Origin: a virus
DNA length: 21,606 bases
Virus record (IMG/VR): IMGVR_UViG_2889849113_000003
Coordinates: 67,716-89,321 of that record
Reading direction: 5' to 3' (one strand)
Position numbers and translations under genes: made by a program. This document shows positions 1-14,924 of the stretch, one piece after another. How positions within the stretch are numbered: the stretch's first letter is position 1; the number at the start of each line of letters is the position of its first letter. Under the pieces are notes generated by a model. It saw nothing but the letters and a program-made list of their open reading frames with translations. It did no database searches and was not told the DNA's origin.

Positions 1-2
1 AC

Positions 3-350
3 AACTGCACCGGCAGCTACGTGCAGCCCGACGTTGAAATGGTGATCGAGGTGCCCAGCGGCAACGACTGGCGCAACAACGCCTTCTTCAACTCGGCCAC
101 GCAGAACTGGCAGCACGTCAACCTGCACAACTACAACCACTTCATTGCCTCCGGCGGCACCTGGGGCGAGGCCAACGGCACCAGCGCCACGGGGGGTGAT
201 CCTTTCGTGAGCGCAAGCGGCCTGGACTTCACGCCGGCGTCGAACGTCATCCCGCCGGGCATCGCGCTGGCGGCGCCCTACAACGTGGATATGTTCGGCA
301 ACGTCCGGGACCCGGCGAACTGGACTCGCGGCGCCGTGCAGAAGGTCTGA
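3..350 (+). CDS. C-terminal fragment of an Asn-rich protein, possibly a right-handed beta-helix/pectate-lyase-like protein with a 'choice-of-anchor Q'-like C-terminus (5' truncated by window)
   Basis: Frame is open from base 3 (NCTGSYVQPD...). Asn-rich rungs (WRNNAFFN, HNYNHF) precede GDPFVSASGLDFTPAS...DMFGNVR...WTRGAVQ, which resembles the DPxF...DFxL...DxxGxxR...DIGAYE tail of beta-helix proteins. Stop is followed by TCC ATG of the next gene. Confidence 0.5.
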   Translation, partial: NCTGSYVQPDVEMVIEVPSGNDWRNNAFFNSATQNWQHVNLHNYNHFIASGGTWGEANGTSATGGDPFVSASGLDFTPASNVIPPGIALAAPYNVDMFGNVRDPANWTRGAVQKV

Positions 351-353
351 TCC

Positions 354-1079
354 ATGCCCATCAGCAACATCCGCACCGCCGTCGCGGGCTCGTCGAACAA
401 TGCCTTCGGCGGCGCCATCACCACCGCGGCCATGGCAACCCTGGCCGACGACATCGTGGTGGTCGCCGTGGTGTTCACGGACGCCAATCCGGCCGGCAAC
501 CTGACCATCACGAACAGCGGCACCGCGATGACGTGGACGCTCATCGCCGACGTGGCGGTCAACGGCTTCAACCGTGTCGCCGCATGGTGGGCGCGCTCCG
601 CCGGCGCGGAGAGCCGCACCGCCACCGTGAACTGGGACAGCGGCCAGAACCTGAACTGGGGCCTCTTCACTGCGCTGCATGCGGGCGGCCATGCCTCGGC
701 CCCGGTGCCACTGGACAAGGTCTACAGCGGCTCCGGCTCCACGGGTGTGAGCCAGGCCATCACGCCGACTTCCGCCGGCTCCGCGCTGTGGCTGCTGGCC
801 GCTGACGCGGCGACTTCCGCCGGTACTGTGCCCTCGACGTTCGCCGCCGGCACGAACTGCGCCATCGAGCGCGCCGTTGCCACCGACCAGTGGGATGCGG
901 TGCTGGTCCGCCCTGCCGTGCAGCCGCGGCCGGACACCAGCGCCTTCACGCTGTCAGAGACGCATGCCGGCAACGCCGTGGCGTGGCTCGCCTTCGAGGT
1001 GCAGTCCGCGGCCAGCGGCGGCGGCACGCTGCTGCCGCTGCTGGCCATGCATCACCGCAAGCAGCAGGGCATCTGCTGA
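354..1079 (+). CDS. Hypothetical virion-associated beta-rich protein (241 aa) with Gly linker and short C-terminal peptide
   Basis: TGAtccATG coupling to the upstream gene, high-GC3 codons, Ala/Thr/Ser/Trp-rich beta-strand pattern, ends GGGTLLPLLAMHHRKQQGIC. Confidence 0.7.
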   Translation: MPISNIRTAVAGSSNNAFGGAITTAAMATLADDIVVVAVVFTDANPAGNLTITNSGTAMTWTLIADVAVNGFNRVAAWWARSAGAESRTATVNWDSGQNLNWGLFTALHAGGHASAPVPLDKVYSGSGSTGVSQAITPTSAGSALWLLAADAATSAGTVPSTFAAGTNCAIERAVATDQWDAVLVRPAVQPRPDTSAFTLSETHAGNAVAWLAFEVQSAASGGGTLLPLLAMHHRKQQGIC

Positions 1080-1106
1080 CCCGCGCCACCACGTAAACCC
1101 ATTCCA

Positions 1107-1146
1107 GGCCCGCCGTGCGCGGGCCGCTTCGCATCTGAGGGCCCGC
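1107..1146 (+). promoter_or_regulatory. Intergenic hairpin with an alternative pairing over the RBS of the next gene
   Basis: GGCCCGC (1107-1113) pairs with GCGGGCC (1119-1125). A second GGCCCGC (1140-1146) overlaps the end of the GAGG (1137-1140) upstream of ATG 1151. Confidence 0.4.
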
Positions 1147-1150
1147 AGCC

Positions 1151-1627
1151 ATGACCATCCGCCTCAAGCAGAGCACCGCCGGCCAGATCGTGCCGCTCGG
1201 GCCCTTCATCGCCAGCAGCGACGGCGTCAGCGTCACGAGCCCGACCATTGCCAGCACGGACATCAAGCTCTGGAAGAACGGCAGCACCACGCTCGCGAAC
1301 AAGAACAGCGGCGGCGCCACGGCCATCAGCCAGGGCATCTACCACGCCACGCTCGACGCCACGGACACGAACACCCTGGGTCCGCTGGTGCTGTTCGTGC
1401 AGGTCAGCGGCAGCCTGCCCGTGCGCCTGGAGTGCGAGGTGCTGCCGGCCAACGTGTACGAAGCCCTCGTGAAGGGCACCCAGTTCCTGGAAGTCACCGG
1501 GTTGAAGCCGACCTGGAGCGTGAGCAGCAACGTGCTCACCGTGCGGGCGGTGGACGGCACCACCACGCAGTTCACCAAGGTGCTCGCCACGGACGGCAGC
1601 GCGCAGCCGATCGTGGGCGCGTCCTGA
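1151..1627 (+). CDS. Hypothetical phage structural/adaptor protein (158 aa, Ig-like beta-sandwich likely)
   Basis: GAGG RBS, strong codon bias. MTIRLKQST...GPF...GIYHATLDATDTNTLG pattern resembles small phage virion proteins; C-terminal beta-hairpin segment LTVRAVDGTTTQFT. Confidence 0.75.
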   Translation: MTIRLKQSTAGQIVPLGPFIASSDGVSVTSPTIASTDIKLWKNGSTTLANKNSGGATAISQGIYHATLDATDTNTLGPLVLFVQVSGSLPVRLECEVLPANVYEALVKGTQFLEVTGLKPTWSVSSNVLTVRAVDGTTTQFTKVLATDGSAQPIVGAS

Positions 1628-1653
1628 ACGCAAACCCTCGGACCTGAGCCCAG

Positions 1654-2616
1654 ATGGGAGCAGGATTCCGCTCGCTGCTGGCCCAGGAGGTCGGCGGCGC
1701 AGCGGTGCCGCAGGCGGCGCCTGCCGGCTTTCGCTCGCTGGCGCTGCTCGAAGCGGGCGGCATCGGTGCGGGCAGCGGCCCGCGCACGGCCTCGGCCACG
1801 CTTGGTGCCTACGTCTTCACCACTGGCGGCGCCGGCTACCGCTCGCTGCTGGCCATGGAGCTCGGCGGCGCCGGCTCCGGCCAGCCCGCAGTGCGGCCGT
1901 TCGACTACGGGTTGCCTGCGGCCTGGGCCGCCGACATAGGCTGGGCGGGCACGTATGCGTGGCACCAGCTCGGCACCACGGTGGTGGCGCGCTCGGTCGC
2001 GGTCAACACCGCAGCCGCCGCGCTCTCCGGCGCCGTGGCCGTGCCGGCGACGGCCGCGGCCACGCTCGACGGCTTCGTGCTCGCCAGCGGCAGCGCGGGG
2101 GCGCAGTTGTCCGCTGCGGTGCAGTCGTCGCCCGCCGCCGCCGCAGCGTTCGATGCCGGCGTGCAGGCGGAGCGCAGCAGCGCGGCCTCGCTGTCGGCGG
2201 TGGTTGCTGCGCAGCAGCTGCTCAGCGGTGCGCTGCAGGCCGCCGTGCAGGACTCGCCGGCCCTGGCTTCTGCACTCTCGGCCGTCGTGCAGGGTGCAGG
2301 AGGGTCACTTTCCGCGCAGGTGCAGGCCGCGGTGCAGGTCGAGGGTTCCGCCTCCGCAGCGCTCTCAGCCTTCGTCGGCGGTACGCCGGAAGTCTCAGCG
2401 CCGCTGTCGGCCGTCATCGTCCTGCCGCGCGAGCGCGCGCTGGCGCTGTCGGCCATCGTCTTCATGCGCCCTAGCCTCTCGCTGGGGATGGATGCGCTGG
2501 TCACCGATCCGGTGCCCGTCGTGATCGTCCAGGCCCCGGAGGGCGGCGGCTACGACCCGGACGTGGTTGAACCCGGCCAGCCGTGGCCCGAAGTGCCGCA
2601 GCGGCCGTCGCACTGA
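1654..2616 (+). CDS. Hypothetical repeat protein (320 aa): three N-terminal AG(F/Y)RSLxxxExGG motifs, twelve ~14-aa Ala/Ser-rich repeats, Pro-rich C-terminus; putative fibre/stalk scaffold
   Basis: Repeats are visible in the translation; the ORF fits between its neighbours without overlap. Confidence 0.75.
   Translation: MGAGFRSLLAQEVGGAAVPQAAPAGFRSLALLEAGGIGAGSGPRTASATLGAYVFTTGGAGYRSLLAMELGGAGSGQPAVRPFDYGLPAAWAADIGWAGTYAWHQLGTTVVARSVAVNTAAAALSGAVAVPATAAATLDGFVLASGSAGAQLSAAVQSSPAAAAAFDAGVQAERSSAASLSAVVAAQQLLSGALQAAVQDSPALASALSAVVQGAGGSLSAQVQAAVQVEGSASAALSAFVGGTPEVSAPLSAVIVLPRERALALSAIVFMRPSLSLGMDALVTDPVPVVIVQAPEGGGYDPDVVEPGQPWPEVPQRPSH
2008..2511 (+). repeat. Twelve tandem ~14-aa protein repeats (consensus xxxAxLSAxVxxxx)
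   Basis: TAAAALSGAVAVPA / TAAATLDGFVLASG / SAGAQLSAAVQSSP / AAAAAFDAGVQAER / SSAASLSAVVAAQQ / LLSGALQAAVQDSP / ALASALSAVVQGAGG / SLSAQVQAAVQVEG / SASAALSAFVGGTP / EVSAPLSAVIVLPR / ERALALSAIVFMRP / SLSLGMDALVTDP. Confidence 0.8.
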
Positions 2617-2661
2617 AACGCAATCGCCCGAAACCGCAACCGCCCAAGGAAACACCGCCTC

Positions 2662-4524
2662 ATGCAAACAGCCGACCTCGTCAAGGAGACCGCTACCGGC
2701 ACCGGGCCCTTCACGCTCGGTGGCGCCGCCCAGGGCTTCCGCACCTTCGCCGCCGCGTTCCCGAGCGGCGCCACTGGCGTCATGGTGGCCGTCTCCGAGC
2801 CGAGCACGGGCGCGCGCCTGACCGGCCTGGCCACGATCAGCGACAACACGCTGACGATCACCAGCACCGAGACGGCTGTGGGCACGTTCGGCGCCGGGGC
2901 GAAGGAGGTGGTGTGTACGGCCACGGCGAAGCAGCTGCGGCGCCTCGCCCGACCCAGCGCACCCACGCTCGGCAGCATTGCTGACGGCAACGCGATCAAG
3001 CTGGCGGCGTTCGACACCAACGGTGACCCGCTGAACTTCACCGCCGGCACGTTTCTGGCATGGTTGCTCACGCAGTCGCAAGGTCCTGGCGATCTTGCCG
3101 CCGCTGGCGCGCTTGCCGGCACGGACATCGTGACCGTGACGCAGGGCACGACCGAAGTCAAAACTACGCTCTCGGCGCTATCAACGTTCTTCGGCGCCGC
3201 TGGCGGCGGCACGTCAACGCCTCCCGGCGCACCAACAGGCCTGACGCTCGGCACTGCCACCACCAGCAGTCAGCCGCTGACGTGGACCGCCCCCAGCAGC
3301 ACTGGCACGAGCGCAATCACCGACTACACGGTGCAGTACGCCGTCGCCGGCAGCGGCTCCTGGCAGACGTTCGCGCACAGCGCTTCGACGGCCACCAGCA
3401 TCACGGTCACCGGCCTGTCGGCGGGCACCAGCTACGACTACCGCGTTGCCGCCGTGAGCGCCGCCGGCTCTGGCTCCTACAGCAGCACCGCGACCGGCTC
3501 CACCGCTGCCGCTACCGGAACGCCGGCAGGCGCCCCGACCGCGCTCACGCTGGGCACGGCCACGACGACGACGCAGCCGCTGTCGTGGACCGCTGGCACG
3601 GAGGGCAGCACAGCAACGACCGACTACATCGTGCAGTACCGGGTGACTGGCTCGGGCTCATGGCTCACCTTCTCGGACGGCACGAGCACGGCGACCAGCG
3701 CGACCGTCACCGGCCTGACGCCGGGTGTGTCCTATGACTATCAGGTGGCTGCGGTCAACGGCGCTGGCTCCAGTGCCTACAGCACCTCGGTTACCGGCTC
3801 GACGGCAGCAGCCGCGCCCGGCCAGGTCACGGGCCTGACGCTGGGCACTGCGACCGAAACGACGCAGCCGCTCACCTGGACCGCACCGACCGCCAACGGC
3901 TCGGCAATCACCGACTACGTGATCCAGTACCGCGTTACCGGCTCCGGGTCGTGGACGACGTTTGCTGACGGCACCTCGACCACCACGAGCGCGACCGTCA
4001 CGGGGCTGACCGCGAGCACAAGCTACGACTACCAAGTTGCAGCCGTCAACGGTGTCGGCACCGGCGCGAACAGCAACACCGCGACCGGCTCGACCGGAGC
4101 GGCGGTGACGGCCTACACCATCACCGGCCACAGCGGCACCGCCGTCAAGAGCACGTTCGACGCCTCTGGGCTCAGCACCGGCTCAAACGGCAAGAAGGTC
4201 ATCGCCCCTTCCAGCCAGTTCACGCTGAACGTCTATTGGGCTATCAGCCCGGCGCCGGCATCGGATGGGGTCGCAACGACCGGCGCCTATTCCGGTTGGG
4301 TACCCAGCGGCACGACGCCGACCACATCCGACAGGGCGGCGACGCAGAACCTGTCGTCTGGACTGAATGCCATTGTTCCGATGGTGAAGCCCTCGACGGT
4401 CTGGGGCAACAACAGCAACCTCTACATCACTCCCGGATCGGGCACGACGACCTGGGACTTCATCGTGTGGCCGGCCGGCGGCACGCCGCAGGTCAAGGGC
4501 ACGCTCACGGTCACGGGCGGCTGA
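2662..4524 (+). CDS. Fibronectin type III domain-containing virion protein (620 aa; N-terminal 'DxVKET..GTG' domain, 3 x FN3, C-terminal beta domain)
   Basis: AAGGA RBS at 2646-2650. Three FN3 patterns (PxAPTGL...LTWTAP...ITDYxVQY...VTGLxxGTSYDYxVAAVNxxGxG). Confidence 0.85.
   Translation: MQTADLVKETATGTGPFTLGGAAQGFRTFAAAFPSGATGVMVAVSEPSTGARLTGLATISDNTLTITSTETAVGTFGAGAKEVVCTATAKQLRRLARPSAPTLGSIADGNAIKLAAFDTNGDPLNFTAGTFLAWLLTQSQGPGDLAAAGALAGTDIVTVTQGTTEVKTTLSALSTFFGAAGGGTSTPPGAPTGLTLGTATTSSQPLTWTAPSSTGTSAITDYTVQYAVAGSGSWQTFAHSASTATSITVTGLSAGTSYDYRVAAVSAAGSGSYSSTATGSTAAATGTPAGAPTALTLGTATTTTQPLSWTAGTEGSTATTDYIVQYRVTGSGSWLTFSDGTSTATSATVTGLTPGVSYDYQVAAVNGAGSSAYSTSVTGSTAAAAPGQVTGLTLGTATETTQPLTWTAPTANGSAITDYVIQYRVTGSGSWTTFADGTSTTTSATVTGLTASTSYDYQVAAVNGVGTGANSNTATGSTGAAVTAYTITGHSGTAVKSTFDASGLSTGSNGKKVIAPSSQFTLNVYWAISPAPASDGVATTGAYSGWVPSGTTPTTSDRAATQNLSSGLNAIVPMVKPSTVWGNNSNLYITPGSGTTTWDFIVWPAGGTPQVKGTLTVTGG
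3220..4100 (+). repeat. Three tandem FN3-coding repeats (~291-300 bp)
   Basis: ACCGACTAC(TDY)...CAGTAC anchors at 3319, 3619 and 3910; the similarity is also clear at DNA level. Confidence 0.9.
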
Positions 4525-4527
4525 TCC

Positions 4528-5838
4528 ATGGCACTCCGCAAAACAGGCCCAGCCCTGCGCAAGCGCGGCGCCCTGCTTGGCTCCATCATCAGCAGCACGG
4601 GCAGCGGTGCCGCCACGCCGCCGCCCGTGACTCCAGGCACGGATTTCGGCATCGGACTGATCGGCCAGTCGGAAATGGCGAACTGGCCCAGCACGCCACT
4701 GGTCAGCCCTCTAGCCGACTCCCGACTGACCCACTTTCTACGCAACAGCAACACGCGGGTTCGGTTCGGCAACTACAACGACAACGGGGCACCAGGCACG
4801 CCGTCCCCGTACACCGGGGTGCCCGGCACAACGACGACACAGCCCAGCTACCGTGGCGATGCTCCGGTCTACCTGGGCAATGCAATCGCCGCTGCGCTCG
4901 GCGTCAATGTGTGCCTGATCGAGCGCGCAGTGGGCGCATCGAGCATCAACTCTTGGGTTGGCGCGGGGGCCAACTGGGCAACGTTTGCGGCCGCAGTGCA
5001 GGCGTCCGGCGTGCCGCTGAAAATGGTCATCTGGTATCAAGGCCCCACCGATGCAGCCGACATGTCGGCGACGACGTACAGAGAAAAACTCGCGCAGGTG
5101 CATGCGCAGTGCTTGGCGCTACCCGGCGTTGATGCTGCGACGTTCAAATTCGGCGTGATTTCCACGGGGCCCGGGAAGTTCAGCGGCTCGCTCGAAGGCG
5201 ACTTCGGCAAGCTGCGGCTCGCGCAGGTGGACTATGCGACCAACACGCCCGGCGCGTTCCTGGCATGCAACGCTTACGACGCTTCCACGGGGGCGAATGA
5301 CAGCGTTCATCCCACGGGCGAGAGCTACAACCGGCACGGCCGGCGCGTGGCGAAGTCGGCGCTCGCGGCGCTGGGCATCGCAAACACCGGGCGCGGTGGC
5401 AGTGGCGCAGGCCCGCGCATCACGGGCGCCACGCGCAGCGGCGCAGTCATCACCGTGACCGTCGCGCACGCGGGCGGCAATGCGCTGCAGGACGGCGCGG
5501 GCGGCACCGGGGCGAGCCTGAGCGGGTTCCGGGTGTTCGACAACGGAGCGACGGCAACGATCAGCGCGACGGCCATCACCAGCCCTACGACGATCACGCT
5601 GACGCTTGCCAGCGCGCCTGCCGGCACGGTGACGCTCACGCATGCCGTCACGGATGCGCCGTGTGACCCGGTGTGGGGCACCGATGCCAACCCGGCAGGC
5701 AAGCGCGCGGGCGCCATCGCGTTCACGGCGGCCAACTGCGTCTATGACAACGACGGGTACTCGGTGGGCACGGGCACGGCGAGCACGACGCTCGGCAGCC
5801 CGCTGCAGCCGTGGTCTGGCACAGTGACGGGGAGCTGA
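4528..5838 (+). CDS. SGNH-hydrolase of the sialate O-acetylesterase (SASA/CE6-like) type with C-terminal Ig-like domain (436 aa)
   Basis: Block I GQSEM (4663-4677; canonical GQSNM), block II GASSINSW, block III VIWYQGPTD (5026-5052; canonical WYQGESD), block V DSVH (5299-5310). TGAtccATG coupling. Confidence 0.75.
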   Translation: MALRKTGPALRKRGALLGSIISSTGSGAATPPPVTPGTDFGIGLIGQSEMANWPSTPLVSPLADSRLTHFLRNSNTRVRFGNYNDNGAPGTPSPYTGVPGTTTTQPSYRGDAPVYLGNAIAAALGVNVCLIERAVGASSINSWVGAGANWATFAAAVQASGVPLKMVIWYQGPTDAADMSATTYREKLAQVHAQCLALPGVDAATFKFGVISTGPGKFSGSLEGDFGKLRLAQVDYATNTPGAFLACNAYDASTGANDSVHPTGESYNRHGRRVAKSALAALGIANTGRGGSGAGPRITGATRSGAVITVTVAHAGGNALQDGAGGTGASLSGFRVFDNGATATISATAITSPTTITLTLASAPAGTVTLTHAVTDAPCDPVWGTDANPAGKRAGAIAFTAANCVYDNDGYSVGTGTASTTLGSPLQPWSGTVTGS

Positions 5839-5839
5839 C

Positions 5840-6283
5840 ATGCTGGGAGTCGGTTCCCTTGCGCAGTATCCGCTCGGCGCTGAGGCGCTTGCGACCACGC
5901 AGTCCGCTGTCGCCGCGGTCTCGGCCGCAGTCAGCGTCGCCGGTGTGCAGTCCGCCATCCTTTCCGGTTACGTTGGGTCTGCCAGCAGCGTGATGCCCAA
6001 GCGCGTGCGCCTAATCTTGCGTACGCTTGGTGGCCAGCCGGCTGCCAATCTCGCCGGCCTATCGGTGGCCTTCTTCGATCAGCCGGAAGTGATTCTGCTG
6101 CAAGCGCCGAGCGTCGTCGTCACCGGGGTGGCCACTGACGCAGGCGGCATGCTTGACATTGATGTTGGCGCCAGCACCCTGAGCCCGGGTGAAATTGGCT
6201 ACTTGGTCGAAGGCAATGCAAGCGGCGACCCCTCGCAGGATCACTCCGGCTGGCACGGTCCGGTGACGGTGGAGGCGGCCTGA
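5840..6283 (+). CDS. Hypothetical virion protein (147 aa): N-terminal MLGxxxLAxxPLG peptide, two LSAxV-type repeats, small prealbumin/Ig-like domain
   Basis: TGAcATG coupling. GQPAANL...VATDAGG..I pattern resembles carboxypeptidase-regulatory/prealbumin-like folds. Confidence 0.65.
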   Translation: MLGVGSLAQYPLGAEALATTQSAVAAVSAAVSVAGVQSAILSGYVGSASSVMPKRVRLILRTLGGQPAANLAGLSVAFFDQPEVILLQAPSVVVTGVATDAGGMLDIDVGASTLSPGEIGYLVEGNASGDPSQDHSGWHGPVTVEAA

Positions 6284-6314
6284 CCATGGTTGCGGAGTTT
6301 GCCGGAGCGCAGTT

Positions 6315-8927
6315 GTGTTGACGGCCTTCACGCTCACCAGTGCCAGCACGCAGGCCGCAGCGCCGTTCGTGCTTGGGCAGGTCTTCAAGCGCGGCAGCGT
6401 GCCGGCTGGCAGCACCGTCGTAGTCTCTGGTGCAGATGCCCAAGTCACACCGAAAGCCTATTGGTCCGACGGCTCTCTGCGCTTTGCGGTGGTGGCTGGG
6501 ACTGCCAATGTCTCCACCACAGCGGCGACACTAACGCTTTCCCTGGGCACGGCCGCCACAGGTGCGGTGCTCACGACAGCGGAACTGCGCGCCACCGGCG
6601 CGGCCGTCACCATCGACTGCGGTGTGCTCGGCGCTGCATCCTGGGCTGGCACTGACTGGGACGCGCCGCTGGACTGGAGTCAGGGCGGACCCGATGTTGC
6701 ATGGGTGTCCGGCCACCGGATGTCGTCGTGGATCTACCGCAAGCCCGTGGGCTCCGATGCGCACCTCGTGGCTTGGCTGGAGGTGCGGTTGTTTGCGACT
6801 GGGCAGGTGGAGATCCTCCCGTGGATCGAGAACGGTTACGTGCATGTGGCCGCACCCACGAACAAGAGCGCGACGTACACCGTAACGATCGGCTCGACAC
6901 AGCGTTTCTCGCAGGCCATCGACCTGCCGCATCACTGCCGCACGCCGCTCATCGGTGCATCGTCGCCGCGCGGTGGTGCCGAGCTCTCATACTGGCTTGG
7001 TGCCGATCCGCGCGTGACACCGCAGCACGACCTGGCCTACTTCCAGGCCACGGAGATGGTGCCCACGTACTGGCCCACGGTGCCGCCAAGCCAGGACATC
7101 GTTGCCTCGCTGCCGGCGACGTACACGCCGCTTCAGCAAGGCAACTACCCCACGGGCATGGGTGCGGCCGGCTACAGTCCATCAATCGGCCTGATACCAG
7201 AATGGGATGTTCTCTATCTCACGTGCCCTGGCAGCGCCAAGCCCTACGAGGCCCTGATCCGCAATGCGTACAGTGCCGGCCGCTACGGCATGCACTACCG
7301 CGACGAGACGACGCAGCGCCCGATCCGTTTCAGCGCCCACCCCGGCCTTTGCCTGAACGCCACCAACTCCGGTGTCAGCAGTGCGGGACACAGCACGCTT
7401 AACGACTACACGCCACAGCCAGGAGGCGCGACGCCGGCGACGTGGGCATCGTCCCATCATCCGAGCGTGGGCTACATGGCCTACCTTGTTACTGGCCGGT
7501 TCTATCACTTGGAGCAGTTGCAGTTTGCGGCGACCCTGAACTACCTCAAGCAGATCGACGCAACGCGGCAGTTCGCAAAGGGATTGTTCCTGTCCCAGGC
7601 TGGCGCCAATACGACGCGCGGCTCCGGCTGGGCGATGCGAACGCTGTGCCAGGCTGCATCCGTCACGCCGGCAGAAGACCCGCTGCATGCCGAGTTCATT
7701 GCATCTACCCAGCACAACGTCGATTACCTGCACGGGCGCTACGTTGCCCAACCCAGCAATCCTCAAGGTTGGGTGCAACCGTATTCCGACTACACGGGCG
7801 CAACCGGCTCCGTGGCTGCGGGTTCAACCGCCACCTTGATCCAGATGCCGGCGGGCTTTGCATTAGCGCAGAGTCCTGTGGGTTGGACGCTTACCACCGG
7901 CGGCAATTCACGCACCGTCATCGCCTATGACAACGTGGCCAAAACGCTCTTGGTGGACTCGCCGTTCCCGTCTGCTCCTGCGGCCGGCTCCTCGTACTCG
8001 CTCAACGACAGCAAGTATTTCGAGGCGGCATGGATGCAGGACTACGTGACTGCGTCCTGGGGCTATGGGCTCACGCTGGATTTGCCGATAAACAACCAGG
8101 CCAAGTTTGCCGCCTGCTTCGAGTGGAAGGCTCAGTCTATTGTCGGGCGCCTGGGGGGCACCGATCCCACAGAGTTCCTGTACCGCGACGCGGCACAGTT
8201 CACCATCTCCATCGCTCCGGCCAACGCACCGAACTACGACACCGGGGAAGGCCCTTGGTACGCCAACTGGGGCGAGTGTTATGCGGACACTTTGGGGGAG
8301 CCCAACCCCGGGGAGGTGGGCAACCTCCGCGGCGATGGCTCGGCTGTACCAACTCTGCCGACGGGATACTGGACTTGGCTGCAGCCCGGCATCGTCTACG
8401 CGATGCGGCACGGCGTTGCTGGTGCCGCCGAAGGCTATGCCCGCATGACCGGGGCAGCCAACTGGCCAGCCCTGCGCGACCTCGGCTACACCGCGCCGGT
8501 TTGGTACGTGAAGCAGCCAGAGGCTGCGGCGGCTCCAGTCGCCAGCACTTCAGTGGCCGCGCTACTCAGCGCAGCGGTGCTGGCTGCACACAGTTTGGCC
8601 TCCCTGCCAATAAGTGCCGCTGTTGCCTCATCCGCGAATGTCACAACGGCAGTCCTGAGCGCGGCAGCGCTGGTCACCCACAGCTCAAGCGTTGCCCTGT
8701 CAGCACAGATCCGGGTGCTGCAGCAGACCGAGTCGCCAGCACGTCATGCACCTCTGCGCGTCGAAGGTGCTGCCATGCATGCGGTACTGCGCGGAGCGTT
8801 GGTGTCGTTCACGCAAACTATGGCTGTCGGTCTGTCGGCCAGCATCGCGGAAGGAAGCTACGTCCCCGCACCCAGTGGCTGCGGCTTTTCTCCAAAACAC
8901 CGCCCCACTTGGCGGCCGAGGCGATAG
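6315..8927 (+). CDS. PcRGLX/YetA-like (exo-rhamnogalacturonan lyase-related, PL26-like architecture) protein with C-terminal Ala/Ser repeats (870 aa)
   Basis: N-terminal APFVLGQVFKRGSVP...YWSDGSLRFAVV matches the P-x-x-x-G-x-x-F-x-x-G / W-x-D-G-S-x-(K/R)-(W/F) pattern of the first PcRGLX/YetA domain. A beta-sandwich and a helical region follow (SHHPSVGYMAYLVTGRFYHLE, RGSGWAMR, WMQDY). GTG start with GGAG at 6304-6307; the start is uncertain (see findings). Confidence 0.6.
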   Translation: MLTAFTLTSASTQAAAPFVLGQVFKRGSVPAGSTVVVSGADAQVTPKAYWSDGSLRFAVVAGTANVSTTAATLTLSLGTAATGAVLTTAELRATGAAVTIDCGVLGAASWAGTDWDAPLDWSQGGPDVAWVSGHRMSSWIYRKPVGSDAHLVAWLEVRLFATGQVEILPWIENGYVHVAAPTNKSATYTVTIGSTQRFSQAIDLPHHCRTPLIGASSPRGGAELSYWLGADPRVTPQHDLAYFQATEMVPTYWPTVPPSQDIVASLPATYTPLQQGNYPTGMGAAGYSPSIGLIPEWDVLYLTCPGSAKPYEALIRNAYSAGRYGMHYRDETTQRPIRFSAHPGLCLNATNSGVSSAGHSTLNDYTPQPGGATPATWASSHHPSVGYMAYLVTGRFYHLEQLQFAATLNYLKQIDATRQFAKGLFLSQAGANTTRGSGWAMRTLCQAASVTPAEDPLHAEFIASTQHNVDYLHGRYVAQPSNPQGWVQPYSDYTGATGSVAAGSTATLIQMPAGFALAQSPVGWTLTTGGNSRTVIAYDNVAKTLLVDSPFPSAPAAGSSYSLNDSKYFEAAWMQDYVTASWGYGLTLDLPINNQAKFAACFEWKAQSIVGRLGGTDPTEFLYRDAAQFTISIAPANAPNYDTGEGPWYANWGECYADTLGEPNPGEVGNLRGDGSAVPTLPTGYWTWLQPGIVYAMRHGVAGAAEGYARMTGAANWPALRDLGYTAPVWYVKQPEAAAAPVASTSVAALLSAAVLAAHSLASLPISAAVASSANVTTAVLSAAALVTHSSSVALSAQIRVLQQTESPARHAPLRVEGAAMHAVLRGALVSFTQTMAVGLSASIAEGSYVPAPSGCGFSPKHRPTWRPRR

Positions 8928-8933
8928 CACCCG

Positions 8934-9503
8934 ATGTCCACCATCAAGATTGCCGAGCCGGCACGCGAGCTTTTCACGCTGGAGGAGGCCCGCGCTTTCC
9001 TCAAGTGCGACGACGCCGAGGCCGACAGCGTCATCACGCTGGCGCTGGCCGCCGCGCGCGAGCTCGCCGAAAAGGAGATGGCGCGCACGCTGCTGGAAAC
9101 CGGCTACGAGATGCGCACCGACGGCTTCAGCCGCGCCGTGCGCCTGGAGTGGCCCCGCGTGCAGCGCGTGCTGTCGCTGCAGTTCGTCGCCCCGGACGGC
9201 GAAGTGCTCACGCTGGACCCGCAGGACTACGTGCTCGACAACGCCAACGACTTCGCGCCGGCGTGGCTCGTGCCCGCGCGCGGCAAGGCCTGGCCGGAGA
9301 CCGCCGACGAGGTCAACGCCGTGCGGGTGCGCTACGTGGCCGGCTACGGCACCGAGCCGGCGCAGGTGCCGGCCGCGATCCGGCAGTGGGTGCAGCTGCA
9401 CGCACGCTCGTTCTACGACAACCCCTCGGCGCTGAGCGCCGGGAACCTCCAGGCCCTGCCGTACCTATGCGGGCTCATCGAGGGCTTCAAGGTCTACGGC
9501 TGA
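8934..9503 (+). CDS. Head-tail connector/adaptor protein (HK97 gp6 / phiE125 gp8-like)
   Basis: EP...TLEEARAFLK.D..D..I..AAARELAE....R.L...; WP....NAVRVRYVAGYG...VPAAIRQWV..H...YDN. Typical of the family. Confidence 0.92.
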   Translation: MSTIKIAEPARELFTLEEARAFLKCDDAEADSVITLALAAARELAEKEMARTLLETGYEMRTDGFSRAVRLEWPRVQRVLSLQFVAPDGEVLTLDPQDYVLDNANDFAPAWLVPARGKAWPETADEVNAVRVRYVAGYGTEPAQVPAAIRQWVQLHARSFYDNPSALSAGNLQALPYLCGLIEGFKVYG

Positions 9504-9505
9504 CC

Positions 9506-9835
9506 ATGGGCGCCGACTTCGACACCCGCGTGGCCCTGCAGCGCCACAGCGGCGCCAAGGACAAGTTCGGCCAGCCGCTGAAGGATGCCTGGGCCGATGT
9601 CGCGCAGGTCTGGGCCAACCGCAAGCTCGGCGTCGGTGTCGAGCAGGTCAAGGCCGGCGCCGACATGGCCACGGTGCGGGCGTCGTTTCGCATCCGCTGG
9701 CGCGCCGGCGTCGATTCCGGCATGCGCCTGGTCGAGGTCGGCTCCGGCGCGGTGTGGGACATCCAGGCCGTGCTGGCGGACCGCCGCGAGAACCGCATCG
9801 ACCTCGCCTGCGAGCAGATCAACCCGAGAACCTGA
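9506..9835 (+). CDS. Head closure / head-tail joining protein (SPP1 gp16 / HK97 gp7-like), 109 aa
   Basis: Real start is ATG 9506 (TGAccATG), inside the 601-aa track ORF. RVALQR...DKFGQP...W.DVAQVWA...FRIRWRAGVDSGMRL....WDIQAVL.D....IDLAC. Confidence 0.92.
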   Translation: MGADFDTRVALQRHSGAKDKFGQPLKDAWADVAQVWANRKLGVGVEQVKAGADMATVRASFRIRWRAGVDSGMRLVEVGSGAVWDIQAVLADRRENRIDLACEQINPRT

Positions 9836-9840
9836 GCCCC

Positions 9841-10368
9841 ATGGCCAAGCTATTCCTCGATGCCGTCGCGCAGACCACGGCGAGCACCGGCACCGGCAAC
9901 ATCACGCTGGTCACGCCGACGCCGTACCCGGGCCGGCGCACCCTGCAGTCCACGGGCGTCGCCACCGGCACGAAGCTGTCCTACCGCATTGCGGCCGTGG
10001 ACAACAACGGCCAGGAGACCGGCGACTGGGAAACCGGCGAGGGCACCTACCTCGGCGCCGGCTCGTTCGAGCGCACGACGCCGCGCGCCGGCTCTGCAGC
10101 GGTGCCCGTGGCATTCGTGGGCGGCACCAAGAAGGTCACTTTCACGGTCAACGCGGCCGACCTCGACACGCTGGCCGAGCTTGATGCCGGCGCAACGCTG
10201 ACGTGGAACACGGACGGCACCCTGGCGACGGTCACGACGAACGGCACGACCTACACCATGGCCTACGCCACCGTGGACGACTTCCCGCGCCTGACCTCCA
10301 TCACCGGCGGCGGCAAGACCGTCGCACTGGGCTACGACGGCGCCGGCCGCCTCACTTCCATCGGCTGA
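9841..10368 (+). CDS. Hypothetical virion protein (175 aa): 'DxVxxT..TGTG' N-terminal domain plus C-terminal YD/RHS-like hairpins
   Basis: ATG 5 nt after the closure gene stop. DAVAQTTASTGTGNITL...WETGEGTY...FVGGTKKVTFT; C-terminus WNTDGTLATVT...PRLTSIT...YDGAGRLTSIG. Confidence 0.75.
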   Translation: MAKLFLDAVAQTTASTGTGNITLVTPTPYPGRRTLQSTGVATGTKLSYRIAAVDNNGQETGDWETGEGTYLGAGSFERTTPRAGSAAVPVAFVGGTKKVTFTVNAADLDTLAELDAGATLTWNTDGTLATVTTNGTTYTMAYATVDDFPRLTSITGGGKTVALGYDGAGRLTSIG

Positions 10369-10385
10369 AGCAGGACACGTCTCGC

Positions 10386-10745
10386 ATGCAACTCGCGCTC
10401 ATCCCTGGCCCCATCCAGCTACCCCAGCTCGAAGCCGGCCCCGCCGAGATCGTTCCGGCCACCGGCACCTGGGCCGGACCGCAGACCAAGGTCATCACCG
10501 CGGCCAACGTCGTGCAGGTGCTTGCCCCCGTGCGCGTGGCCCGGCGCGGCTGGCTGATCCAGAACTTCGGCTCCGACGGGGCGGACTTCTGGATCGACAG
10601 CGGCGCCAACCCGGTGCCCTACGAGTGCATCACCGTTCCTGCGGGTGCCGAGTGGGTGTGCCCGGAGAACATGGTCACCGGCGCGGAACTGCGCATCCTG
10701 TGCTCCGTGGCCGGGACCAAGTTCGCCTTCCGCGAGGCCTTCTGA
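10386..10745 (+). CDS. Small jelly-roll-like hypothetical protein (119 aa), possible spike/fibre base
   Basis: AGGA RBS at 10372-10375, ATG 10386. RRGWLIQN...FWID.G......ITVPAGAEW...ELRI all-beta pattern. Confidence 0.7.
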   Translation: MQLALIPGPIQLPQLEAGPAEIVPATGTWAGPQTKVITAANVVQVLAPVRVARRGWLIQNFGSDGADFWIDSGANPVPYECITVPAGAEWVCPENMVTGAELRILCSVAGTKFAFREAF

Positions 10746-10746
10746 C

Positions 10747-11304
10747 GTGGGCGGCGGCATCAGGTTCTTCCGCGGCGGCCTCGTCGAAGAAACGAGGCTT
10801 TTCGCGCTCAACGCGGTGGCCGGGCAGACTGCGGCCCCCGGCAACACGAACATGAACGCGCTGGCGGGCTGCGCCTACACCATGCCCCGGGGCGTGCTGC
10901 CGATCACGGGCCGGCTGCGGATCTGGGTGGCTGGCCGCAAGGGGAACAACACCCAGACCGACGCGGTGACCTTCGGGCTGCGCGTCGGCACCACCGGCAC
11001 GGCGTCCGACCCGCTGCTGGGCTCGTTCGGCTTCACGCTGCAGGCCACGTCCCGCTCCTGGGCCTTCATGACGCACTGGCGCGTGGAGACCGCAACGCGC
11101 ATCCGCCGCGTCGGCGCGATTGACGGCGTCGGCGGCGAAACCAGCCAGATCGGCTCCAGCATCACGACGGCCTCCACCACGGACACGCTGCCCGATGTCA
11201 GCGTCAACACCCTGCAGTGGCGGCTGCACGCGCAGATGAGCGCCGGGAGCGCCGACTGGGTCGTGGTGGACGACTTCGCCATCCTGGTCACGGACCCGTA
11301 CTGA
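10747..11304 (+). CDS. Hypothetical beta-rich virion protein (185 aa) with Gly-rich N-terminal peptide
   Basis: GTG 1 nt after the upstream TGA; stop overlaps the next ATG (TGATG); coding-like codon bias. Starts MGGGIRFFRGG. Confidence 0.7.
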   Translation: MGGGIRFFRGGLVEETRLFALNAVAGQTAAPGNTNMNALAGCAYTMPRGVLPITGRLRIWVAGRKGNNTQTDAVTFGLRVGTTGTASDPLLGSFGFTLQATSRSWAFMTHWRVETATRIRRVGAIDGVGGETSQIGSSITTASTTDTLPDVSVNTLQWRLHAQMSAGSADWVVVDDFAILVTDPY

Positions 11305-13778
11305 TGGCCACGCGCTACAAGTGGTTCCCCGGGCACTACGTGCTCCTCTACAACGTCAACCTTCCGGACCAGTGGAACGACGGCGGCCTCACCCGCCACC
11401 TGGAGCAGATCAAGGACATCCCCAACCTCATCGGCATCCAGAAGCGCTACACGTGGCGCTTCCTGGAGGCGACGAAGGACAGCTACGACTTCAGCGACAT
11501 CGTCACCGACCTGGCGACGTGCGAGCGCTACGGCAAGAAGCTGCGGGCGTTCCTGACGATCAAGGGCTTCAACGGGGGGCGCGGCGCGCCGGACTACCTG
11601 CGTCCCGGCAATGCCGGTTATGAGGCCGGCTTCGGGCCTGGGGTCTACAACTGGCTGCAGATCGAGCAGCCCGCAGGCTCGGGGAACTTCGTCCCTCGCA
11701 ACGAGCATCCCGCCCTGTGGCTGAACCCGGTGCGGGACCGGCTGAAGAAGCTGGTGCAGCGCATGGGCCAGGCCATCGACAGCCATCCGGCGCTGTCCGT
11801 GGTGGACCTCAACGAAACGTCGTGGGGCCCGGTGCCTGCGGGTACAGCCGCCGGCGACGATGCCGTGTCGCGGCAGCGCAAGATGGCGCTGGCCTACCGC
11901 GAGGTGCACGCGCAGGCCAAGGTTTCGTTCCCGACGACGATCTTTTGCCACTTCCTGAACTTTCCGAACAATGCCGGCTTCTCCGTCATCAATGATGCCG
12001 AGTCCGGTCTTCCTGCGGAGATGCTTGTCACCGGCACTGCGATCGGTGGCCCCGACAACTGGCTGGACGACTTCGGGCTGGAGCGCCCGCCCAGCGTCTA
12101 CCCGCCGCTGCCCGGCGTTTTCTGGCACTACAAGAACGCCCGGGGTCTGACGGCCATCAGCCCCTCGAACCAGCCCGGCAACTACGAAACCAAGAGCCAC
12201 GAGGACTACACCAACACCGACGAGAACGGCAAGCCAGCGCGCATCGTGGCGCCGGACATCACCATCGAGAAGATGTACCTGCGGTGTTCGACGGCTGGGG
12301 TCACGTTCCGCGGCATGTTCAAGGAAGGCCTGCACGCCACCCACGTGAACTGGAGTGCGCGTACCGATGCGGTGCCGACGGCGACACCTTGGGTGCCGTG
12401 GAACGAGATCCGCAACTTCTTTCGCAACAAGTGGAATACGCCTGGGCCCGACTACCAGAATATGACTCCGGGCGTTGTCACGGCCGTTCCCGCCGCCCTT
12501 GAGGACGGGGCGCCACAGCCGCCGCCGGCCCCCACGCTGCGACTCGCCTCGGACACGGGCCAGGCCGGGGACGACCTCTACACGAACAGCGCCGCATTGG
12601 CCGTGGATGGCCTCGTGGCCGGCGCCGTGGTGCAGTACGCGCGCGACGTTTTCTCCGGCTGGAGCGCGACGCCGCCGACACCCCTGCCCGGGGAGAACAC
12701 CGTGATCGCGCGCCAGTTGCTCCAGGGCATTCCGAGCGAGCCCAGCAACATCCTCACGTTCCAGTACGACAGGGATGCTCCCGTGCTGGTTCGCGCCACG
12801 ATCAACAACGACATCCTGCGCATCTACTACCGCGATGCGGTGCCGTTCGCCGATGCTGCAGGCTTCATTCCGGACCGCAGCGCCTACAGCGTCACGATCG
12901 GTGGCGCTCCGGTCGTCGTGGACGGACGCAGCGTGCTGGTGGTGCTGCGGGCCGTGGAACTCAACCTGCGCACGCCGGCGCTGGCCGGCAGCGAGGTGCG
13001 GGTCAGCTATTCACCTCCGACCAGCGGGACGCTACGGTTCCAGGACGCGGCCGGCAACTTCGCGCCGGCCTTCACGAACCAGGCCGTCAACAACGTCACC
13101 GGCGTGCCGGCCCCGACGAAGACGGTCGCGATCACGCAGATCGGCGGCGTCACCCCCGGGGGTTACACCCCCGACGGCGCGCCGCTGCTGCAGGGCACGA
13201 TTTCCGGGGTGCTTGCGAACTACGAAGAGGTCGAGGTCCGCCGCGTCTTCACGCAAGTCGATCCCGACACCGGGGTCTCGACGACGAGCTATGTGCTTGC
13301 CGGCATCGCCGACGTGGTCGGCACAACCTGGAGCTACCGCGACACAGACCGGGGTGACCGCTTCTTTGCGTGGGCTGCGCGGGTGCGCAACGGGGAACTG
13401 TTCGGCCCGTTCTCGGAAACCGTCGGCGTCACCGTGGACACGAAGCCGCCGCAGGTGCCGGTGCTGGGGTCCGGCAAGGCCGTGTATCGGGTTGGCGAGG
13501 CCGTGACGATCTTCGGCGGCTGGGGTGCCGGCGCCGGCGAGAAGATCGTCGTCTACGTCAACGGTGGCCAGTACACGACGGCCAACGGGCTCCAGATCAC
13601 GGGGCGGAACTGGACGCTGCCGCTGGGTCCGCAGCCCGTGGGCCGCTACAACCTCGGCGCCATCGTGACAGACCTCGCCGGCAACACCGCGGCGGTCGAG
13701 GAGCCGACGTTCTTCGATGTCGTCGGCGAGCCGTCGATCAACGAACTGCGCCTGGCGCTGGCGCGCGTGAGGGTCTGA
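11304..13778 (+). CDS. Multidomain protein (824 aa): glycoside hydrolase-like TIM barrel (clan GH-A, GH42/35-like) + Pro linker + Ig-like + SwmB-like + two Big/Ig-like domains
   Basis: ATG overlaps the upstream stop. YTWRFLEATKDSYDFSDI..DL....RYGKKL, APDYL, HPALSVVDLNETS (NE at 11811-11816). Then LRLASDTG..GDDLYT (Ig-like), DAPVLVRATIN...VRVSYSPP....FQDAAGNFAPAFTNQAVNNVT (SwmB-like), PLLQGT...VDTKPP and TDLAGN (Big-like). Confidence 0.7.
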   Translation: MATRYKWFPGHYVLLYNVNLPDQWNDGGLTRHLEQIKDIPNLIGIQKRYTWRFLEATKDSYDFSDIVTDLATCERYGKKLRAFLTIKGFNGGRGAPDYLRPGNAGYEAGFGPGVYNWLQIEQPAGSGNFVPRNEHPALWLNPVRDRLKKLVQRMGQAIDSHPALSVVDLNETSWGPVPAGTAAGDDAVSRQRKMALAYREVHAQAKVSFPTTIFCHFLNFPNNAGFSVINDAESGLPAEMLVTGTAIGGPDNWLDDFGLERPPSVYPPLPGVFWHYKNARGLTAISPSNQPGNYETKSHEDYTNTDENGKPARIVAPDITIEKMYLRCSTAGVTFRGMFKEGLHATHVNWSARTDAVPTATPWVPWNEIRNFFRNKWNTPGPDYQNMTPGVVTAVPAALEDGAPQPPPAPTLRLASDTGQAGDDLYTNSAALAVDGLVAGAVVQYARDVFSGWSATPPTPLPGENTVIARQLLQGIPSEPSNILTFQYDRDAPVLVRATINNDILRIYYRDAVPFADAAGFIPDRSAYSVTIGGAPVVVDGRSVLVVLRAVELNLRTPALAGSEVRVSYSPPTSGTLRFQDAAGNFAPAFTNQAVNNVTGVPAPTKTVAITQIGGVTPGGYTPDGAPLLQGTISGVLANYEEVEVRRVFTQVDPDTGVSTTSYVLAGIADVVGTTWSYRDTDRGDRFFAWAARVRNGELFGPFSETVGVTVDTKPPQVPVLGSGKAVYRVGEAVTIFGGWGAGAGEKIVVYVNGGQYTTANGLQITGRNWTLPLGPQPVGRYNLGAIVTDLAGNTAAVEEPTFFDVVGEPSINELRLALARVRV

Positions 13779-13780
13779 GC

Positions 13781-14395
13781 ATGGCAAACAGCTTCAACCT
13801 CTCCTTCGACCCGGCGCCACTGCTCAAGCAGGTGCAGTCCGTGCGCGAGGCCGTCGAGGCGTCCACGCGCGGCGCGGCCCGCGCCGGCGCCGTGGTACTG
13901 CGCGACGAGGCGCGCCGGCGCGCGGCCAACACGCCGCAGGCGGCGAAGTGGGGCGTCTCGCAGACTGGCAACTTCAGCCGGGCGATTTACCACCAGTTCG
14001 CGCATGACAGGAGCATCCCGGACCGCAAGGCCTCGCCGGGCTACATGCGGGCCATCTACGCCGTCAGCTGGAACCACGCCAAGGCGCCGCATGCCTGGAA
14101 CGTCGAGAACGGCCACTGGCAGTATTTCCGCTGGACGCGCGATGCTGGCGGCAACTTCTGGACGATGCGCCAGCCGCATGCCTGGGGCAAGGCCAAGCCG
14201 CGCCCGCCGCGCAAGAAGACCGGCGACCGCACGGACCAGTACAACTACTGGGTGCCCCTGGACAAGCCGAAGTGGATTCAGGGCTATCCCATCATCCGGC
14301 CCACCTTCGCGGCGATGTGGAACCAGGCGCTGCAGGCCGTGAACCGGCGCTTCAACGAGCGCCTGGCCGAAGAACTCGCGGAGCGCGGCCTGTGA
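13781..14395 (+). CDS. HK97 gp10-like tail completion/neck protein (204 aa)
   Basis: ATG 2 nt after the upstream stop. AARAGAVVLRDEARRRA, TGNFSRAI, KAPHAWNVENGH, YPIIRPTF correspond to the gp10 motifs TGxLxxSI, YxxxVExG, PFxRPA. Confidence 0.85.
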   Translation: MANSFNLSFDPAPLLKQVQSVREAVEASTRGAARAGAVVLRDEARRRAANTPQAAKWGVSQTGNFSRAIYHQFAHDRSIPDRKASPGYMRAIYAVSWNHAKAPHAWNVENGHWQYFRWTRDAGGNFWTMRQPHAWGKAKPRPPRKKTGDRTDQYNYWVPLDKPKWIQGYPIIRPTFAAMWNQALQAVNRRFNERLAEELAERGL

Positions 14396-14757: not shown

Positions 14758-14783
14758 CGCACGCAACTAGCAACTTGAATTAT

Positions 14784-14804
14784 CCCGCCTTGAGCGGGCT
14801 TTTT
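14784..14804 (+). terminator. Putative intrinsic terminator 1
   Basis: CCCGC-CTTGA-GCGGG followed by CTTTTT. Confidence 0.55.
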
Positions 14805-14835
14805 CGTTTCTCTCTCGCCCGAAAGGGCATCGGCC

Positions 14836-14868
14836 AGCCCGGCATGCACTCGCATGACCGGGCTTTTT
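14836..14868 (+). terminator. Putative intrinsic terminator 2
   Basis: AGCCCGG-CATGC-ACTC-GCATG-A-CCGGGCT followed by TTTT. Confidence 0.6.
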
Positions 14869-14924
14869 CATGCCCGCTCGGGCAAGTGTCTAGCGGGCTG
14901 TCAAGCCCTGGAAAGGAAGCAATC

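Follow-up and report, generated by a model that had tools for sequence, protein, structure and literature searches.

What could a dozen accessory genes do for a siphovirus when they are placed among the genes that join its head to its tail? The question is raised by the window analyzed here, a stretch of 21,606 nucleotides (positions 67,716 to 89,321 of IMG/VR record IMGVR_UViG_2889849113_000003) found at the end of contig C24 (121,736 bp), from the genome of an Azohydromonas host (7.8 Mb, 70% GC). As a preliminary description of this sequence had stated, 12 coding sequences (CDS), all on the + strand like the other genes of the window described below, are tightly packed (intergenic gaps of -1 to 71 bp; 12,865 bp in total) and distributed in two slots. 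Slot A, defined as the region from the capsid gene to the head-tail adaptor, contains a1 (only its 3' end, 3 to 350) and a2 to a8 (354 to 8927), and slot B, from the closure gene to the gp10-like gene, contains b1 to b4 (9841 to 13778). Our analysis indicates that the block probably encodes several accessory virion fibers located around the neck and made in the late operon. Judging from the sequences, at least one of them is most likely of a beads-on-a-string design, with a bead protein different from that of the podophage GP4 (see below). We consider these fibers accessory because the element also carries an ordinary tail-tip fiber gene and a chaperone-like gene after the tape measure.

Rope proteins, anchor motif, and putative bead

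The rope or scaffold of such a fiber would be a4 (1654 to 2616), recognized from its repeats and profile matches. This protein begins with three 13-residue motifs (at residues 4, 25, and 61), continues with twelve 14-residue repeats in register (residues 117 to 285; lag-14/28 z = 10.7 versus shuffles), and ends in an anchor-like motif. A position-specific scoring matrix (PSSM) of the rope repeat, made from unrelated phages only, matched a4 nine times and the tail of a8 three times, against 0.24 and 0.04 matches expected, respectively. Small and hydrophobic positions alternate along the repeat, in the manner of a donor strand. Hence a4 has what characterizes the rope of GP4-type fibers, docking repeats at regular intervals in a protein encoded separately. 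One strong repeat of the same type is found at residue 20 of a7 (5840 to 6283; rope PSSM, homologues), together with a small domain that recurs at the C terminus of other phage proteins.

At the end of a8 and of the ropes of related phages, an Ala-Pro-x-Gly motif precedes an Arg/Pro-rich tail, and the C terminus of a4 carries a looser form of this anchor. The ending was found on the gene directly 5' of the adaptor in 33 of 66 related loci, versus 1.6% of the other open frames, which served as a control. Most simply read, this motif would dock the rope onto the adaptor. The possibility that a4 and a8 are the halves of one split gene was rejected, because a rope and an anchor-like end are present in both.

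The likely bead gene, u2 (162 amino acids), lies in the part of slot A upstream of the window. A 14-mer rope protein adjoins u2 in 13 of 15 distinct loci, whose phages differ considerably in gene content; both exceptions are short contigs. In the close relatives L017 and L020, the position of u2 is occupied by a homologue of Gp80, the bead of GP4 (PF23140, E 1e-22; PDB 8JOU, E 3e-5), and the rope has a period of 22 to 23 residues. u2 itself gave no Pfam match, so that by sequence it falls outside the Gp80 family (PF23140), and we read it as a putative alternative bead. Chaperone-usher pilins and TasA rely on donor-strand complementation. The best matches of the predicted u2 model (pLDDT 81) were FimG, FimA, Csu, and TasA, with residue 1 of u2 aligned at the end of their donor strands, and the protein is thus predicted to have a pilin-like fold without a donor strand of its own. 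GP4 gp80 was not among the fold matches listed for the model, which does not by itself speak against a Gp80 fold. Gp77 (PF23148), the fiber-tail adaptor of GP4, follows u2 and u5 in three unrelated phages (L034, L041, and L044). In another group of loci (L064, L071, L074, L075, and L085), we observed other putative bead genes accompanied by other repeat types (14, about 20 to 22, and 24 to 26 residues), with slot A cargo that is beta-propeller or LamG-like.

These features describe periodic ropes (a4 and the a8 tail) that end in the anchor typical of the gene preceding this type of adaptor. The anchor would dock on the adaptor, every u2 copy would receive a single beta-strand from one 14-residue repeat, and the repeat count would set the length of the fiber, in the way that the GP4 rope governs its chain of Gp80 dimers. 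We also considered that the fibers sit on the capsid, with vertex proteins or the cement-like u1 as their attachment, or that u2 self-polymerizes into a TasA-like head filament, with the 14-mer proteins serving otherwise. The location of u1 directly after the capsid gene, its weak resemblance to Bbp16 (E 0.04), the match of u2 to the self-polymerizing TasA, and the fact that the chain-like fiber I of GP4 also docks on the capsid (PMC13730344) are all consistent with this arrangement. We nevertheless regard it as unlikely, since the u2 alignment includes no donor extension, rope and u2 occur together in different phage types, and the anchor gene is tied to the position of the adaptor.

Putative fiber bases and cargo related to host proteins

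Besides the neck ropes proposed above, the block contains proteins that look like the bases of separate fibers. According to its homologues and model, a3 (1151 to 1627) consists of an Ig-like N-terminal anchor domain and a short C-terminal cap. Within a phage fiber family of very large size (6,009 clusters), in which this domain is N-terminal in proteins of about 190 to 900 amino acids, a3 is the shortest form. The model (pLDDT 88) gave middling scores (Z about 7) against TP901-1 ORF48 and the Ig domains of the 80alpha baseplate. A role of a3 as a 15-fold collar was unsupported, the domain being an N-terminal fiber anchor, and a match to a viral fusion protein (E 0.06) was taken as chance. Immediately 5' of a3 there is usually a2 (354 to 1079; 241 amino acids; homologues in L015, L017, L020, G005, and L055), a beta-rich protein that ends in a short basic tail and gave no family match. 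In a5 (2662 to 4524), an N-terminal domain that resembles b1 by eye is followed by three FN3 domains (PF00041, E 2e-41) and a C-terminal domain, and the protein matched PHROG minor tail proteins. Profile matches and relatives indicate that b1 (9841 to 10368) combines a fiber-base-type N-domain with YD/RHS-like hairpins, while b2 (10386 to 10745; 119 amino acids) and b3 (10747 to 11304; 185 amino acids) are beta-rich proteins kept in the relatives compared within the phage family.

The preliminary description had listed several domains and carbohydrate-active folds, which fared differently. The FN3, SWM, and Big domains were recovered, the first in a5 and the other two (an SWM repeat and Big_13) in b4. 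So was the SGNH esterase, a6 (4528 to 5838), a SASA/SGNH acetylesterase with a basic leader and a weak SWM-like C terminus, which lies above the family cut-off (PF03629, E 1.5e-9, 38.2 versus 24.8 bits), has Ser48, Asp258, and His261, and matches a PHROG 4201 tail fiber (E 2e-16). By sequence, this is the only solid enzyme call in the block. Relatives of a6 were absent from viral contigs, and two weak ones appeared among 300 family genomes. For the PcRGLX/YetA-like lyase (a8, 6315 to 8927; profiles, homologues), a likeness to the N-terminal RIFT barrel of PcRGLX stood, at a score below the threshold (20.8 bits versus a cut-off of 22.1) that a distant homologue surpasses (31.6 bits), and no match to the second or third PcRGLX (PL26) catalytic domain or to the PDB was found. 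Fused to this PcRGLX-like domain (residues 1 to 735) is a tail with four degenerate rope repeats, which ends in the conserved anchor. The GH-A-like barrel of b4 (11304 to 13778; profiles, relatives) drew weak matches to GH35 structures (E 0.003 to 0.007, with the N-terminal motif at E 0.003) and, in host paralogues, to GH42 (E 0.006). Its Glu171, within an Asn-Glu pair, is invariant in 11 rows, and the second catalytic glutamate was not located. After the barrel come the SWM repeat and the Big-like domains, and the protein closes with a basic C-terminal helix that is conserved; no shorter homologues of the barrel were returned. As for the beta-helix suspected in a1, a protein of 487 amino acids that starts 1,113 bp before the window, a single host paralogue points to it (E 0.006). 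Profile searches of a1, a3, a8, and b2 against PDB sequences gave nothing credible. From its domains, the cargo does look carbohydrate-directed, as had been proposed. Of the activities suggested, de-acetylation has a solid sequence basis in a6 and cleavage lacks one.

Paralogues of the cargo are encoded in the chromosome of the same genome (two of a1, one of a8, and six of b4), and most of them start with Sec or lipoprotein signals. The paralogue of a8 is part of a polysaccharide-type cluster, next to a flippase-like gene. The six b4 paralogues (L045 to L050, on host contigs C14, C131, C138, C153, and C166) form an unnamed GH35/42-like family with mostly lipoprotein signals, for which no description of function was found in the libraries searched. 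In a midpoint-rooted tree of seven rows, a1 clusters with two secreted host paralogues rather than with the a1 of related phages (support 99/98), whereas b4 forms a phage clade (100/100, in a small tree) that would fit an older gain; neither tree roots the direction of transfer. Members of the a8 family, in a wide variety of fusions, were found on 44 viral contigs. The layout of domain, rope, anchor, and adaptor recurs in L064 and L085 with another putative bead gene, and the L067 protein ends in a BppU_N-like domain (E 0.003). GC content at third codon positions (GC3) is 0.74 to 0.86 in a5 to a7 and the a8 domain, versus about 0.9 to 0.97 in most neighbors. Since these genes are also absent from the relatives compared, they look like a recent addition.

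Secreted host relatives and a recent gain of a5 to a8 would also suit a different interpretation, in which the enzyme-like genes are morons, or enzymes released at lysis, that remodel the polysaccharide of the lysogen or the biofilm and are not virion parts. One viral a8 homologue located in a head-neck slot (L099:5944-8214) even retains a signal-peptide-like start. We find this very improbable. As the preliminary description had noted, no phage copy in the block has a signal-peptide-like start (a crude check of hydrophobicity and lipobox); rope, anchor, or basic leaders take the place of signal peptides, as in a1, whose N terminus is basic where its host paralogues carry the signal. In addition, the genes are separated by gaps of a few bases, and predicted promoters and terminators within the block (1 and 11) did not exceed clearly those of shuffled sequences (1.0 and 8.1), in a scan that is weak at 70% GC.

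We therefore return to virion fibers. Of their cargo, a8 is fused to a rope, a7 and perhaps a1 would attach through one rope-type strand each, and other parts would rely on separate fiber bases (a3, a5, and b1). Three cargo domains appear to belong to families secreted by the host, with virion-type leaders or tails replacing the signal peptides. The set, assembled in the cytoplasm, might comprise one or two u2-coated ropes (a4 and a8) and the bases a3 with a2, a5 with a7, and b1 to b4. These fibers would bind and locally modify the extracellular polysaccharide of the host ahead of tail-tip engagement, by de-O-acetylation in the case of a6 and by binding or cleavage in those of a1, a8, and b4.

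Slot occupancy and the carrier element

Neck genes had been expected to be nearly contiguous. To evaluate how unusual the filled slots are, we surveyed viral contigs with the long RcGTA-like adaptor, with flanks limited to 8 kb, and the expectation held for one slot only. Slot A exceeded 2 kb in 32 of 43 loci; therefore, a filled slot A is normal for phages with this adaptor type, although the one described here was the largest among those surveyed. By contrast, the distance from the closure gene to the terminator was 750 bp or less in 17 of 22 loci. As the five exceptions (4.5 to 4.6 kb) all carry b1 to b4, a filled slot B is a trait of this phage family only. The order and size of these four genes are kept, at 36 to 57% identity, in two phages of about 120 kb from metagenomes, in one more contig, and in an element of Azohydromonas lata, the same-genus genome used for comparison. 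Translated searches (tblastn) gave no match, either among GenBank phages for b1 and u2 or among plasmids for b4.

Slot B, which would represent a second, fixed appendage, is thus constant across the family while the genes of slot A are swapped. This makes unlikely a single branched kit such as the scaffold-plus-cargo appendage proposed initially, and several separate fibers fit better; what remains of that proposal are the virion-type genes of a late operon and the short linear motifs. The stronger version, one cellulosome-like complex in which all 12 proteins share a common scaffold and degrade polysaccharide cooperatively, could appeal to the variety of cargo folds within one operon and to the three N-terminal motifs that a4 has besides its 14-mers (five in relatives). 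It is quite improbable in our view: the rope motif is missing from most of the 12 proteins, a5 to a7 and the a8 domain have the lower GC3 and the absence from relatives described above, and no cohesin or dockerin Pfam match appeared in the 12 proteins at E 0.1. The scaffold fits instead a bead-on-rope design.

Several observations weigh against our own interpretation of neck fibers. The loci are related to each other, and the counts of co-occurrence of rope and u2 overstate their independence. The matches of u2 to pilins had Z values of 5 to 6 (best, 6.0), under the guide value of 8 of the tool; because of these modest scores, a donor-strand mechanism is something we infer from the model. Gp77 (PF23148) was not found in this genome, in a search that was uninformative, as the controls were equally silent. 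The rope PSSM did not detect rope-type strands in a6, a2, a3, or b1 to b4 and scored weakly in a1 (5.8 bits), so the motif would leave the attachment of all these proteins unexplained. It is gene order alone that points to the docking of anchor on adaptor, and the placement of the block proteins in the virion is likewise a prediction from genes. By their sequences, a1, a8, and b4 are candidate enzymes only, and in the neck fiber of phage A-1(L), the distal carbohydrate-binding module did not bind the host (PMC10966104). Accordingly, we advance only as a tentative idea, doubtful as a whole, that this is a bead-on-rope system of a second kind, derived from pilins, with one polypeptide donating strands serially to chaperone-free pilin-like subunits, and that conjugative siphovirus-plasmids of about 120 kb use it, with other bases, to display four or more active polysaccharide-remodeling enzymes, captured from the secreted proteins of the host and acting jointly on one polymer.

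The genes around the block follow a recognizable order. Slot A starts 3.9 kb upstream of the window, at the capsid gene, and in full contains 14 genes (12,871 bp), of which u1, u2, an HNH nuclease, u4, u5, u6, and most of a1 lie outside the window. The HNH endonuclease gene, of lower GC, is inserted 3' of u2 (L001:11322-11972), as it is in L032 and L035. The adaptor (8934 to 9503) is of the long RcGTA Rcc01688-like type (PHROG 442, E 4e-22; RcGTA adaptor 6TBA, E 2e-8) and precedes the head closure protein (9506 to 9835; PF05521, E 2e-16). Slot B is closed by the gp10-like tail completion gene (13781 to 14395), assigned by a weak profile match and synteny, after which come a terminator and the tube gene. 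The two biggest gaps of the region are at 1080 to 1150 (71 bp) and 14758 to 14924 (167 bp), the latter with a terminator-like hairpin ahead of the tube gene.

The carrier is most likely a circle of 121.6 kb, because C24 opens and closes with the same 127 bases (their initial 45 are found at no other site of the assembly) and, across the join, the tape measure forms one frame of 2,101 amino acids (16417 to 21606 of the window plus L053:128-1243). Terminase, portal, protease, and HK97 capsid genes are found upstream of the window, and tail-tip, fiber, and lysozyme genes after the join. A TROVE/Ro60 gene (L053:6285-7601) lies immediately 3' of the lysozyme, and dihydrofolate reductase-like (C24:41774-42364) and acyl carrier protein-like (43514-43765) genes were recognized by eye. 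Pfam matches identified VirB4, VirB10, VirB11, a relaxase, and ParA, and the conjugation genes, including VirB/VirD4, extend over C24:9.8-31.5 kb, outside the window (L053:9842-20000, L054:1-11510), on one contig with a complete siphovirus. No tyrosine integrase match was found on C24. A relative of 120,045 bp (L191, L192) has VirB5, 6, 8, 9, 10, and 11, VirD4, OmpA, and LPD7 in the same position and orientation, with conjugation proteins 33 to 56% identical to those of C24 and 48 to 78% identical to those of another system on host contig C175. VirB4 was not found in five IMG/VR records, all of them partial or trimmed. The term conjugative phage-plasmid is already in use, and the gene content of C24 (circular contig, virion and lysis genes, relaxase, VirB4/10/11, and ParA) corresponds to it. 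The two elements are candidates for a family of conjugative phage-plasmids, and no described family like these siphovirus-plasmids was found in the papers searched. Such a carrier, a siphovirus-plasmid whose conjugation system occupies the same place in two members of the family, merits a separate study.

Comparison with known fiber and scaffold systems

Cellulosomes are built on cohesin-dockerin scaffoldins. The locus shares with them the general logic of scaffold plus enzyme, but it has neither cohesin nor dockerin, its products are not secreted, and enzyme activity is predicted at most. With the SASA/SGNH tail-fiber esterases of phages (PHROG 4201; PF03629), a6 has in common the fold and the catalytic residues, and it differs in being a stand-alone gene in a head-neck slot and in a Glu that replaces the usual Asn after the catalytic Ser. 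The types represented by a1, a8, and b4 point to poorly characterized host families as possibly polysaccharide-acting and recruited by phages, repeatedly in the case of a8. The predicted u2 fold and the donor-strand-like rope repeat resemble chaperone-usher pilins and TasA. Here, however, the strands would be provided in series by one separate polypeptide, and there is no chaperone, usher, or secretion signal. If the donor-strand model is true, it would offer a simple programmable scaffold for protein display.

The Anabaena myophage A-1(L) (gp82-gp81-gp80) likewise has a bead chain at the neck, with a carbohydrate-binding module placed distally and one part that adopts a pilus-like fold, but its beads are trimeric, no rope has been described, its neck protein is pentadecameric, and the genes lie away from the neck genes (PMC10966104). 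Closest is fiber I of the Ralstonia podophage GP4, made of gp80 dimers on a separate rope protein, with gp77 as the fiber-tail adaptor (PDB 8JOU), to which the fibers of VP1 and A1002 are related; in A1002, beta-sheet augmentation joins the bead dimers to the rope (PMC13730344). No siphophage structure of a bead-on-rope system was found in the literature searched, whose coverage is incomplete. A fiber design solved in a few podophages would extend to siphoviruses and be common, since a rope-anchor gene precedes half of the related adaptor genes. It suggests a testable rule, by which bead type corresponds to repeat type and repeat number to fiber length. Both systems have a separately encoded periodic rope and a small bead protein, here the putative bead u2, and close relatives of this phage hold a true Gp80 in the bead position. 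On the other hand, this is a siphovirus with a pilin-like bead that is not Gp80 by sequence, a 14-residue period, no detected Gp77, two ropes (one fused to a 735-residue enzyme-like domain), and an extra four-gene appendage. The block thus appears to work like the GP4 fiber while its bead departs from Gp80 in sequence, which would make it a variant of the GP4-type chain-like fibers rather than a member of them.

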